A stretch of 64,000 nt of DNA from Escherichia coli (GTDB lineage: Bacteria > Pseudomonadota > Gammaproteobacteria > Enterobacterales > Enterobacteriaceae): assembly GCF_030013205.1 (NCBI RefSeq), contig NZ_CP122648.1; one strand, 5' to 3'. The position numbers and the translations under genes were made by a program. This document shows positions 33,485 through 36,297 of the stretch, one piece after another. Position 1 is the first letter of the stretch; every line of letters starts with the position of its first letter. The notes under the pieces were generated by a model. That model did no database searches. It had not been told where the DNA came from and saw only the letters and a program-made list of their open reading frames with translations.

Positions 33485-33949
33485 CTACTTTCTCAGTTTG
33501 TCCCACCGAACCGCTGATACGATACCCCAGTTGCCGCTAGGATTAGGCCTACGCCATTTTGCTGTCTCCATGCTACGAAGATACTCAAGAGCTTCAGCAA
33601 ACGTGCCAAAACGCTTCTGAGCCGCTTTATCACCTACGCCAAACGAACCATCACGGGTGCTCGCCAAACCGGGGTGAAAACAGGAACCATCGGCTGCGTA
33701 TGGAACCAACAGTTCCGAGTCGTTATCTTCAGATGGGCCAGGCGCTAACAACTGCCACGGCTCAACGCTCAGAGCGTTAGCCAGCACCTCAATCGCATCC
33801 AGAGACGCATTAGAGCCACCACGTTCAATTCTGCTCATATAACTACGTGCAAACCCGCACCGATCGGCAAAGGCCTCTTGGCTCAATCCGGTGGCAATGC
33901 GCAGTTCTTTTACCCGCTCGCCAAACTGTATTCTCAGGGATTTTTTCAT
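33485..33949 (-). CDS. XRE-family HTH regulator with an unassigned C-terminal domain
   Basis: An internal Met gives MKKSLRIQFGERVKELRIATGLSQEAFADRCGFARSYMSRIERGGSNASLDAIEVLANAL (a classic XRE HTH). It is followed by about 85 aa ending ...FGTFAEALEYLRSMETAKWRRPNPSGNWGIVSAVRWDKLRK. The track ORF is extended upstream. Confidence 0.75.
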   Translation of the reverse strand: MKKSLRIQFGERVKELRIATGLSQEAFADRCGFARSYMSRIERGGSNASLDAIEVLANALSVEPWQLLAPGPSEDNDSELLVPYAADGSCFHPGLASTRDGSFGVGDKAAQKRFGTFAEALEYLRSMETAKWRRPNPSGNWGIVSAVRWDKLRK

Positions 33950-34189
33950 GCACTGAATGTGCAATTTTGACCACTGTAAGGCCACGCTCCATATGAGATA
34001 TTTTGAATCCAATCTCACTTCAGCGAGCTTAGTCACTAGCATTCATCGGCTGTATCATGACAATCCTTTTTGATTCAAAACAAACACCAATGGTGACATT
34101 TAAAACCCAACAAGTATGATGATCATCATCGGTTGGGCGTCACCAGCGTTCGCTATCAGGCGCGATGTGGTTTGGAAAGTGAGGGAATC

Positions 34190-34684
34190 ATGACGGGAGC
34201 AGACTTTTTATTACCGATTGCAGCGGGAGCCGCGATTAGCTGGGCCAGTTATAGTGTAGTTGCCCATGCTGTATCAAAGCAGCACATCAGCACGCTACGC
34301 GCAACTGTATGGGGTGCTCTGGGCACTCTCTCATTGGTGCTGGGCGTATGCGCCTTTTCTGCTGTAGGTGCTGAGCATCAGACAGCACGAAAAGATATCG
34401 TATGTGCAGATGACAACCCGGAATGCTATGCGAAAACGCACCATAACCCGGTCAGGGAGTGCAAAAAGGTAATGGATGAGAAAGCGAAGTTTCGCCATGT
34501 GTGGCAAGAAAGCGAAGCGCCTGTATTTAATACTTATCTCTGGCACGATGAGAACGCGAAGATTATTCAGGCATTTGGGCAACAAGCTAAGGTAGTTAAC
34601 AGCCTGGGGATGCTAGCTCCGCTTCAATACTTTTGTGTTTTCAACGCAAAAACAGGAGAAGTCATTGCGGCCTCTTTCGAATAA
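34190..34684 (+). CDS. Hypothetical 2-TM membrane protein with a Cys-containing soluble C-terminal domain
   Basis: The ATG at 34190 follows GAGGGA. MTGADFLLPIAAGAAISWASYSVVAHAV and VWGALGTLSLVLGVCAFSAVGA are hydrophobic helices. I do not recognise a family. Confidence 0.55.
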   Translation: MTGADFLLPIAAGAAISWASYSVVAHAVSKQHISTLRATVWGALGTLSLVLGVCAFSAVGAEHQTARKDIVCADDNPECYAKTHHNPVRECKKVMDEKAKFRHVWQESEAPVFNTYLWHDENAKIIQAFGQQAKVVNSLGMLAPLQYFCVFNAKTGEVIAASFE

Positions 34685-34744
34685 AAATGTGAGGGAATTC
34701 ACCCTAACATCAAAAATAAACTTATGTAATGACCTCGCATTTAA

Positions 34745-35590
34745 TTATTCATTTAAAGATTCAAGAAATGTCCAGCCTTTATGAGTAACATAATACATTT
34801 GTCCTTTTGCCCCTCTTTCAATCACAAAATCAAAGGATAACAGTTCGTTAAGTGCGCCCTCCCAACGGGCTACCTCTCTAGCCGAACTTCCACCAAAGGA
34901 TTGATTTCCCGCTTGAATATCCGTGCCACCTAAATGCCTTATCACATAAATTGTTCCGCTATCATCGACACATGCTAATTTCAGCAAACTGAGTGCATCG
35001 GCGGACAAATTACTTTCTGGCAAAGATTGACTTGTATTCGCATCAGGAGAATTGTTAATGGTAGATATAAGAGAAGACAAATAAGGGCTACTAGAAATAA
35101 TTATCGAAAGTTGCCTACGGACTTTTTCTTTGAAATCAGATAAGTCATTAAAAGACTCTATCAATCCCTTTTGCATGCACTCAGTTTTGAACAATTTAAG
35201 AGACTCATATTGTTCTCTATCAAGGCTTTCAGGGGCAACAGGCTTTGAGGAAAAGTAAATCATTGCCGGTTTTCCCGCATTCAAATGACGGTGGATTTCT
35301 TCGACTGTTCCGCTGGCCTCGTTCCCAGTCGGTGAGCCTAGACGAGTCCAAAACACACCGATTAATAAATCACAATCTACTAATAATCTTTGATTAATCA
35401 ACTCCTGAGGCCTAACTCCTAATTCGGGTGATGTATGAGTTTCCCATCCAATTGGTGTCAACATTACTTTTGAACGAGCTGAATTTATATCATTCCACTC
35501 ATGGATCATTTCACGAATGACTTGTCTCTCTTCAGCGACATCACCAGGAGAAGCAATCATTACAGGGATAACAGTTGCTGTGTAAGCCAT
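34745..35590 (-). CDS. DUF4062 / TIR-like N-terminal domain protein with a C-terminal winged-helix-like module
   Basis: 281-aa ORF starting 13 bp after the recombinase stop. The motifs are VMIASPGDVAEER, DLLIGVFWTRLGSPTG and SGTVEEIHRHLNAGKPAMIYF. The family assignment is from memory and needs an HMM check. Confidence 0.55.
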   Translation of the reverse strand: MAYTATVIPVMIASPGDVAEERQVIREMIHEWNDINSARSKVMLTPIGWETHTSPELGVRPQELINQRLLVDCDLLIGVFWTRLGSPTGNEASGTVEEIHRHLNAGKPAMIYFSSKPVAPESLDREQYESLKLFKTECMQKGLIESFNDLSDFKEKVRRQLSIIISSSPYLSSLISTINNSPDANTSQSLPESNLSADALSLLKLACVDDSGTIYVIRHLGGTDIQAGNQSFGGSSAREVARWEGALNELLSFDFVIERGAKGQMYYVTHKGWTFLESLNE

Positions 35591-35603
35591 AAACTCTCCA
35601 TAT

Positions 35604-36164
35604 TCAATCGGTAATAGCTGCTACAGTCGCTCTTGAAACGCCATATTGACGCGCTAACGCACTGATACTCAAACCGCTATTCTTTTTCTCTAAAATCTCT
35701 CTACGGGCTTCTGACGCGATTTTAGGAGGTCTGCCCAATTTCTTACCTTCGGCTTTTGCTCGTGATAGTCCCGCCTGAGTGCGCTCAATCAGCAGATCAC
35801 GCTCCATCTCCGCAACCGCGGCGAGCATAGATAATAGCAACTTCCCAGCGGCAGAAGTGAGATCTGTGTTACCAAGCTGGTGGACAAGAACCTTGATATT
35901 ACGGTCAGCCAGCGCCCTTACCGTTTGCAAGACGTCAATCGCATCACGCCCCAGACGATCAAGCTTCGCTACCACCAACGTTTCACCATCGCGGATTTTA
36001 TTGAGCATTTCAGAAAATGCTTTACGTTGCATTGCCGGAACCTTCCCGCTAACAACATCGGCAAACCAGTAATCAATTTGCCACCCAGCCTGCCCAAGCT
36101 CCAGCCGTTGGTTCTCAGTATCCTGCTGCGATGTCGAAACACGTCCGTAGCCAAAAGTTGCCAT
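35604..36164 (-). CDS. Serine recombinase (resolvase/invertase family)
   Basis: MATFGYGRVSTSQQDTENQRLEL...LVVAKLDRLGRD... has the catalytic Ser in GYGRVST and a C-terminal HTH (ISALARQYGVSRATV). The track ORF has a 23-codon upstream extension. Confidence 0.88.
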   Translation of the reverse strand: MATFGYGRVSTSQQDTENQRLELGQAGWQIDYWFADVVSGKVPAMQRKAFSEMLNKIRDGETLVVAKLDRLGRDAIDVLQTVRALADRNIKVLVHQLGNTDLTSAAGKLLLSMLAAVAEMERDLLIERTQAGLSRAKAEGKKLGRPPKIASEARREILEKKNSGLSISALARQYGVSRATVAAITD

Positions 36165-36186
36165 TGTTATCTCCCCATCTGACCCC

Positions 36187-36297
36187 TGCCAGAAAACGAG
36201 GCCAACATTAGGATGGCCTGCCAGAAAAGCCAAGGCTATTTTTCCAACAGTGTGAAAGCGTGCGATTGGGAGGTGCCAGAAAACGGTCGTTTGTTGG
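36187..36297. promoter_or_regulatory. res-like array: three TGCCAGAAAA-containing sites immediately upstream of the serine recombinase gene
   Basis: TGCCAGAAAA occurs at 36187, 36219 and 36274. The third copy sits in the imperfect palindrome CCAGAAAACG-GT-CGTTTGTTGG (36276-36297). Confidence 0.5.

Follow-up and report, generated by a model that had tools for sequence, protein, structure and literature searches.

The Locus and Its Cargo Gene

The stretch of DNA considered here, referred to as the window, comprises 64,000 nucleotides (nt) of one strand of Escherichia coli DNA (GCF_030013205.1, contig NZ_CP122648.1), and the region in focus, 33485-36297, contains four open reading frames (ORFs) that encode a small serine recombinase, a protein of 281 amino acids (aa), a 164-aa protein with two predicted transmembrane (TM) segments and a regulator of the XRE family (Table 1). 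An ORF scan recovered all four at the positions reported in a preliminary description of this DNA, which had proposed them as the best candidate for an undescribed conflict system. The focal region corresponds to the distal half of an integrative mini-island of 7.3 kb (33006-40291) that is delimited by perfect 28-nt direct repeats that a repeat search identified as copies of the leuX 3′ end. Both tRNA-Leu(CAA) and an integrase are present, and the earlier view of an integrase-delivered islet at leuX in the context of conflict systems is thereby upheld. The explanation that we favour, and regard as quite probable, is that this leuX mini-island carries a single-gene defence cargo of the DUF4062/NIR-AUX kind, the 281-aa protein, and that the neighbours of this gene form an end module of the island.

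The genes of the island lie in the order DUF6538 integrase, NIPSNAP, DUF1643 (frameshifted), serine recombinase, DUF4062 cargo, 2-TM gene and XRE gene, and entry into the leuX tRNA gene would have been the work of the DUF6538-type tyrosine integrase. In its small size, its tRNA site, its integrase and recombinase and its defence cargo, the element resembles the “integrase-only” defence islands described at E. coli tRNA hotspots (Hochhauser et al. 2023, PMC10121019), and like them it lacks further recognisable mobility genes. Within the distal half, the 13-nt gap between the recombinase stop codon and the start of the 281-aa ORF, as first described, was confirmed by the ORF scan, and the sequence GGAG lies about 7 nt upstream of the ATG; from this gap and the Shine-Dalgarno sequence, it appears that the cargo and recombinase genes are probably co-transcribed. 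The 2-TM gene converges on the 281-aa gene across a 60-bp gap; on its other side, 240 bp of intergenic DNA separate it from the divergent XRE gene. The motifs quoted for the 281-aa protein in the preliminary description are present, and the gene is indeed AT-rich (GC 0.39-0.41 versus 0.48-0.52 in its neighbours).

A Predicted TIR-like Enzyme Joined to an AUX Domain

The 281-aa protein, WP_000331917.1 in RefSeq, is matched by the Pfam family PF13271 (DUF4062) with E=7e-5, and the PADLOC profile PDC-S60 matches its N-terminal ~165 residues at 5.8e-27; PDC-S60 is a 906-aa PADLOC candidate, and the match is confined to its first 169 profile positions. Among 5.8 billion proteins searched there were more than 2000 homologues, the best of them about 280 aa long, covered over their full length and 53-66% identical; many homologues in the range of 55-60% identity carry PF13271, and some RefSeq records name the 281-aa protein DUF4062. 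The initial assignment to the DUF4062 / TIR-like / deoxyribosyltransferase-like domains thus holds. An alignment of 26 diverse homologues shows E97 and E98 (SGTVEE), W49, D17/R22 and many other N-terminal residues to be invariant, and E97/E98, predicted to follow strand C, would provide the conserved catalytic glutamate.

The AlphaFold2 model (pLDDT 81) shows an N-terminal domain (residues 6-147) with a Rossmannoid alpha/beta arrangement of five strands and five helices, which is a TIR-like / N-deoxyribosyltransferase-like fold, followed by two stalk helices (150-179), a disordered linker (181-192) and a C-terminal domain ordered as helix, three-strand meander, long helix, hairpin and helix (H-bbb-H-bb-H). 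On homology and predicted fold, then, the protein is a DUF4062/NIR TIR-like enzyme. A phmmer search against PDB sequences gave nothing at E<=1, and a Foldseek search of the model against the PDB gave weak generic flavodoxin/TIR matches only, indicating that the PDB copy searched contains no solved DUF4062 structure. A tblastn search of a phage collection with the 281-aa protein gave no match, so that, as far as that collection goes, the gene does not belong to a prophage.

The AUX domain searched by itself has 622 cluster representatives, and it is found fused to canonical TIR, RelA/SpoT and DndB as well as in tandem after DUF4062; because of these fusions it is best regarded as a portable sensor module.

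Two side observations concern the homologues. Salmonella Senftenberg NCTC10384 has a gene for the DUF4062 N-terminal domain (L005 5001-5573; 49% identical over residues 1-160) that directly follows a prophage terminase gene and is interrupted by an IS3 element. Members of the 90%-identity cluster to which the 281-aa protein belongs include 186-aa recombinase sequences, a hint that in some assemblies recombinase and DUF4062 are called as one fused or read-through ORF, which would bridge the two in clustering.

Comparison with Known DUF4062/NIR Systems

Three preprints of 2026 describe DUF4062 with a C-terminal sensor as single-gene NADase anti-phage systems, and the word “undescribed” in the first account of this locus therefore no longer applies. 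Osinski et al. (bioRxiv 10.64898/2026.05.01.722283) established DUF4062 as a TIR-like NADase and described Swarozyc, a single protein made up of DUF4062, a helical stalk and an AUX domain of helix-turn-helix (HTH)/winged type, which brings about abortive infection in E. coli. KpSwz requires E97 and the AUX domain and is activated when AUX binds the phage portal; five Swarozyc homologues were tested, and the one from E. coli/Shigella protected (10.64898/2026.05.01.722283). The 281-aa protein, as modelled, has the same layout of DUF4062, helical stalk and C-terminal HTH/winged AUX in one polypeptide, and it shares with KpSwz a catalytic Glu numbered E97 and an occurrence in Enterobacteriaceae defence islands (10.64898/2026.05.01.722283).

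Evangelion, described by Ibarra-Chavez et al. (bioRxiv 10.64898/2026.06.25.731849), comprises Eva01-Eva04, in which a conserved DUF4062 core is joined to a diversified AUX needed for defence, and it acts as a single gene on mobile elements; in all three respects (DUF4062 core with AUX, single gene, mobile-element carriage) the 281-aa gene is alike. Eva01 responds to phage recombination/replication functions, binds DNA intermediates and is plasmid-borne in Gram-positives (10.64898/2026.06.25.731849). The PLSDB screen of that paper and our tblastn search point to the same plasmid genera in similar counts (Synechococcus, Salmonella, Enterococcus). The Enterococcus plasmid homologues, of which the Evangelion paper reports about the same number of plasmids, probably represent the Eva01 lineage, and they align to the 281-aa protein over residues 4-159 only, at ~35% identity by tblastn. 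Full-length similarity extending to an Eva01-type AUX was not found, the Enterococcus AUX being unrelated, and in this the 281-aa protein differs from the Eva01 lineage.

Le Mouellic et al. (bioRxiv 10.64898/2026.09.04.749371) renamed DUF4062 as NIR and reported that NIR-Avs2, Vulcan (NIR-HEAT) and Vesta (NIR with an alkaline phosphatase) deplete NAD+ and that abortive infection goes with it, with the catalytic Glu at E98 in Vulcan and E103 in Vesta. These systems have the same effector domain and the same catalytic Glu position as the 281-aa protein, but their sensors differ: Vulcan has HEAT repeats, Vesta an alkaline-phosphatase partner and Avs2 a STAND NTPase with TPR. No gene for the Vesta partner alkaline phosphatase (VstB) is present in the island, and no HEAT repeats were matched in the C-terminus of the 281-aa protein, which is a ~90-aa mixed alpha/beta module.

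Taken across the three preprints, NADase activity, dependence on the Glu and abortive infection have been reported for KpSwz, Eva01, PsAvs2, Vulcan and Vesta. By analogy, the 281-aa gene would be a stand-alone phage-defence NADase for which abortive infection is predicted. The N-deoxyribosyltransferase-like character of the fold leaves room for another activity, in which the N-terminal domain would be a nucleotide/nucleoside N-glycosidase (MilB/Rcl/deoxyribosyltransferase-like) acting on another nucleotide and not an NADase; set beside the activities reported for the relatives, we consider this very unlikely.

Swarozyc, Evangelion, Vulcan and PsAvs2 serve as the analogues from which a mechanism for the NADase can be sketched. 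In the uninfected cell, the 281-aa enzyme would be held in an autoinhibited oligomer. Upon infection, the AUX domain would bind a component made by the phage (the portal in the case of KpSwz), and the resulting loss of NAD+ would halt the infected cell. The recombinase, the membrane or exported protein and the XRE regulator would have no part in these events; they bracket a cargo slot. The 281-aa protein would thus be a new, or possibly an already tested, member of the single-gene DUF4062/NIR-AUX kind known since 2026.

Several points weigh against this interpretation. The PF13271 score, 23.4 bits, falls just short of the gathering cut-off of 24.7. The preliminary description had guessed at a C-terminal winged helix, which was reasonable, and the winged-helix AUX call consists of weak Pfam matches (HTH_45 at E=0.013-0.07; MksE and PadR in AUX homologues) and secondary structure only. 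The likeness to KpSwz (WP_202404386) and to the tested E. coli protein (UPI0002A39D72) is one of layout, orthology to either being at most putative, and the KpSwz landmarks W176 and W238/Y239 (at the hairpin tip) have no evident counterpart in the 281-aa family alignment. Finally, the four genes remain together within Enterobacterales (L006, L007, L094, L103), where a local functional link, such as control by XRE or joint transcription with the recombinase gene, might still be at work.

Does the Cargo Gene Need Its Neighbours?

In a rival view, which builds on the preliminary description, the recombinase, DUF4062, 2-TM and XRE genes would act together as one multi-gene defence system, in which, for example, XRE would exert control and the membrane protein would serve as a second effector. 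There is some support for this idea, as E. coli, Pantoea and Pluralibacter share the gene order and the 13-nt spacing between recombinase and DUF4062 genes, and both recur at another chromosomal site in E. coli D8; the HTH of XRE is also similar to controller proteins and to CapH, and these do regulate defence genes. The neighbourhoods argue otherwise. They were compared in 80 species-representative loci with a homologue of the 281-aa protein, 62 of them with a full-length match, and neighbours were counted within 3 kb. Homologues of the recombinase, the 2-TM protein and XRE are all absent from 78 of the 80 loci and accompany the DUF4062 homologue in Pantoea and Pluralibacter only, so that the co-occurrence expected across lineages is confined to Enterobacterales islands. 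In the 62 full-length loci, each neighbour family is limited to 3 loci at most. As in Swarozyc, which acts alone, there is no conserved partner gene. In addition, the recombinase and XRE travel with other cargo or with none, and they are found without DUF4062 in islands with retron XII, PDC-S06, Old or unknown genes; the published DUF4062+AUX systems function as single genes. A single four-gene system is therefore improbable: the three neighbours are backbone genes of a mobile island, not partners of the 281-aa gene.

Individual loci elsewhere present the gene in other settings. A stand-alone full-length homologue lies beside toxin-antitoxin genes on Synechococcus pANL, and a longer homologue follows a TIR-domain gene on Caulobacter pCB4. 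The latter (Caulobacter henricii, L003 3642-6578) is a 525-aa protein composed of DUF4062-AUX and ~245 extra residues, and its first base directly follows the stop codon of a gene for a 453-aa canonical TIR-domain protein; the pair may be a two-gene TIR + DUF4062 variant.

Two Alleles and the Question of Inversion

Among 5426 complete E. coli genomes, a 2.9-kb block identical or nearly identical to that of the window is present in ~424, including Nissle 1917, and either of two cargo alleles is present in ~520. The second allele encodes a protein of 282 aa, 65% identical, in the same leuX island of roughly 100 complete E. coli genomes, and it occurs also in Enterobacter, Yersinia and others. 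A blastn comparison of the window with an island carrying this allele (L094) revealed ~93% DNA identity throughout except for one segment of the cargo gene, the hypervariable segment of Table 1, in which there is no detectable DNA similarity. At the protein level the two alleles are 83% identical in the NADase domain, 28% in the stalk and 54% in AUX. Judged from these sequences, the AUX/stalk segment is the fast-evolving part, with the signature expected of an arms race, and at the DNA level it is the one part in which the E. coli alleles differ. A shared enzyme domain with a replaced sensor/stalk, in an island that is otherwise 93% identical, amounts to a natural experiment on the evolution of trigger specificity.

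About one in ten complete E. coli genomes carries this DUF4062 gene, which makes it probably the commonest DUF4062/NIR defence gene in E. coli. Since the carriers include the probiotic Nissle 1917 and the reference strain ATCC 25922 (“FDA strain Seattle 1946”), the gene bears on phage-therapy host range and on the engineering of Nissle.

A recombinase beside a gene with a variable segment raises the question of whether it acts as a DNA invertase, either for phase variation of the cargo or for shuffling of its sensor end, by way of a 21-nt imperfect inverted repeat, 34209-34229 / 35596-35616. The best profile matches of the recombinase are indeed DNA invertases (phrog_125 at 1e-55; the Mpi family at 4e-28, below cut-off), one arm of the repeat lies exactly at the recombinase stop / cargo start, and the variable segment sits within the cargo gene. 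Against this, a synthetic inverted-junction query of the 5426 genomes found the inverted junction in none of the 520 E. coli genomes that carry the locus, the exact core of the repeat is only 12 nt long (by estimate, about one such chance match is expected in 5.5 kb), and the alleles differ by sequence replacement and not by orientation. The right arm of the repeat coincides with C-terminal codons of the recombinase, and for this reason the repeat is taken as a chance match. With no inverted form in 520 genomes, the switch that defines the Hin/Gin/Mpi type is lacking and an invertible segment was rejected; we give inversion next to no credence.

The Recombinase/XRE End Module

The serine recombinase (sequence start MATFGYGRVSTSQQD) has its catalytic Ser10 in a YGRVST motif and possesses both a resolvase domain and a C-terminal HTH. 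The XRE regulator at the far end of the island has an N-terminal domain that is 47% identical to the restriction-modification (R-M) controller C.AhdI, but it differs from such controller (C) proteins in carrying an extra conserved C-terminal domain of ~75 aa (residues ~79-154, 33485-33715), which is beta-rich and confidently modelled, with D87, G88, C90, F91, W132, R134, P135, N136 and W149 invariant. This domain has no Pfam match, and no family was found for it. There are no R-M genes in the island and hence none adjoining XRE. C-box operators were also considered for XRE and rejected, because the island contains no GACT-N3-AGTC and the sole match in the window, at 11341, lies far outside; no short inverted repeats were found in the two intergenic regions checked.

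For the 164-aa protein, which had been described as having two N-terminal TM helices, hydropathy identifies one strong hydrophobic segment at 38-62 and a weaker one near 5-27. It has a Cys-rich C-terminal domain, and its family is restricted to Enterobacterales. The profile and PADLOC searches advised at the outset, which placed the 281-aa protein in DUF4062, returned no Pfam, NCBIfam or PADLOC match for this one.

Sister islands show how these genes are arranged around different cargo. In one E. coli island (L086), the recombinase, 2-TM and XRE genes follow one another with nothing between them, and PDC-S06 lies on the integrase side; in another (L087), a retron type XII RT-TIR gene lies between the recombinase and 2-TM genes. 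In E. coli O157:H7 (L088), two unknown ORFs take the place of the DUF4062 and 2-TM genes, and homology with the window ends at the recombinase stop (35608) and restarts at 34009. Between sister islands, the similarity is lost precisely at the stop codon of the recombinase gene and on the promoter side of XRE. Beyond E. coli, every XRE homologue examined in Pseudomonas (including P. syringae) and Yersinia adjoins a resolvase gene in a DUF6538-integrase island with Old or unknown cargo, and identities between E. coli and P. syringae are 75% for the recombinase, 63% for XRE and 35% for the integrase. In Azoarcus sp. KH32C, which is a looser case, a more distant XRE homologue is 60% identical and has no resolvase among its called neighbours, part of this locus being without gene calls. 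Overall, it is clear that the recombinase and XRE are the conserved end module of small DUF6538-integrase islands in E. coli, Yersinia and Pseudomonas.

Between recombinase and XRE there is, as a rule, one small gene whose product is exported or membrane-anchored, but its sequence is more varied. Proteins of 155 aa in Pseudomonas, 243 aa in Yersinia and 250 aa in O157 have signal peptides and appear related by eye, without a family assignment. The enterobacterial 2-TM protein occupies the same position and has no sequence similarity to them. Genes for signal-peptide proteins between recombinase and XRE were noted at L109 6425-6892, L108 6153-6884, L088 6667-7419 and L091 9208-9843, and at least three of them appear homologous by eye.

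One could envision that XRE and the divergent 2-TM gene constitute a separate two-gene module, independent of DUF4062, which would act in superinfection or entry exclusion or as a membrane toxin held in check by a repressor. XRE and the 2-TM gene do occur without DUF4062 in E. coli (L086, L087), and a gene for a small exported or membrane-anchored protein stands beside XRE, between it and the recombinase, in the Pseudomonas, Yersinia and O157 islands, with protein families that differ. This possibility is nevertheless unlikely, given that the searches gave no homologue among known exclusion, toxin or defence families and that the 2-TM gene is also found by itself, flanked by IS1 copies.

We tentatively propose, as a suggestion that stands well short of probable, that recombinase, small exported/membrane protein and XRE make up a previously undescribed end module of widespread 5-8 kb defence mini-islands (those of Enterobacterales and Pseudomonas; Azoarcus has a related XRE), that this module defines cargo slots and that it may have a role in cargo exchange or in the timing of expression after transfer; as a separate part of the same tentative proposal, the two DUF4062 alleles might form a natural sensor-swap pair with different phage specificities. 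The text of Hochhauser et al. 2023 (PMC10121019) differs from the present account in making no mention of a serine recombinase or resolvase, so the recombinase / exported protein / XRE end module is not described there. Most worth following are this end module and the natural sensor swap, and the recombinase/XRE module provides a simple handle for finding more mini-islands and unknown cargo.

The O157:H7 leuX island, which lies beside Zorya II, offers an example of such cargo: its slot contains a 438-aa ORF (L088 7571-8887) with no Pfam or PADLOC match, in which a PD-(D/E)xK-like stretch can be seen by eye (GDGDYFFVECKRLQK), and the presence of this stretch makes the ORF a candidate uncharacterised defence gene.

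Other Features of the Island and Its Surroundings

Table 1. Features of the leuX mini-island, with positions in the window and the basis for each call
Feature	Position	Strand	Basis or remark
Distal att repeat (attR-like)	32978-33005		Perfect 28-nt copy of leuX 3′ end; also recovered by blastn against L094
XRE regulator, 154 aa, last island gene	33485-33949	-	HTH close to R-M controller (C) proteins
2-TM membrane protein, 164 aa, Cys-rich C-terminal domain	34190-34684	+	phrog_20749, 1e-102
Cargo gene, 281 aa, DUF4062/NIR TIR-like + stalk + AUX	34745-35590	-	ORF scan, homology, fold model
AUX domain (aa 195-281)	34748-35008	-	Model
Disordered linker (aa 181-194)	35009-35050	-	Model
Stalk (aa 149-180)	35051-35146	-	Model
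Predicted NADase domain (aa 1-148)	35147-35590	-	Homology and model
Hypervariable segment in cargo gene	34790-35122	-	Codons ~157-268, from the stalk end through the linker into most of AUX; DNA not detectably similar to second allele
Small serine recombinase (resolvase/invertase type), 186 aa, backbone gene	35604-36164	-	PF00239, 8.8e-37; HTH_7, 9.6e-6
DUF1643 gene, frameshifted pseudogene	36357-36823	+	PF07799, 2.7e-24 on 109-aa remnant; RefSeq “frameshifted”
NIPSNAP-family protein, backbone gene of enterobacterial islands	37829-38161	+	RefSeq name; recurs in sister islands
Tyrosine integrase, N-terminal DUF6538	38294-40246	-	PF00589, PF20172, PF13102; RefSeq calls a 636-aa form
Proximal att repeat	40292-40319		Overlaps 3′ end of tRNA-Leu(CAA)
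tRNA-Leu(CAA) (leuX)	40295-40379	-	tRNA detection

In the integrase half of the island, the DUF1643 gene is frameshifted also in Nissle 1917 and intact, at 155 aa, in islands with the other allele (L094) and in O157:H7. The NIPSNAP-family gene product has no Pfam match, and a literature search for DUF6538, the N-terminal domain of the integrase, gave no papers. Between the DUF1643 and NIPSNAP genes, ~1 kb (36824-37828) contains no ORF of at least 60 aa and falls in tracts that align at ~92-93% with sister islands; this interval could be the site of an origin of transfer or a regulatory site. An Rfam scan of 32400-40400 found the tRNA and no other non-coding RNA.

A degenerate third copy of the repeat (68%), possibly left behind by an earlier integration, is present at 33094-33121, 116 nt inward of the distal repeat. 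Outside the island, and not part of it, the AbiJ-like gene of the preliminary description, an AbiJ-NTD4 / PADLOC PDC-S32 gene at 31623-32447 (5.6e-104), lies beyond the distal att repeat. Together with a gene for a 208-aa phrog_11802 protein at 30948-31574, it is situated between the island and IS30/IS3 remnants, and the two genes are probably the remnant of an older island at the leuX hotspot.

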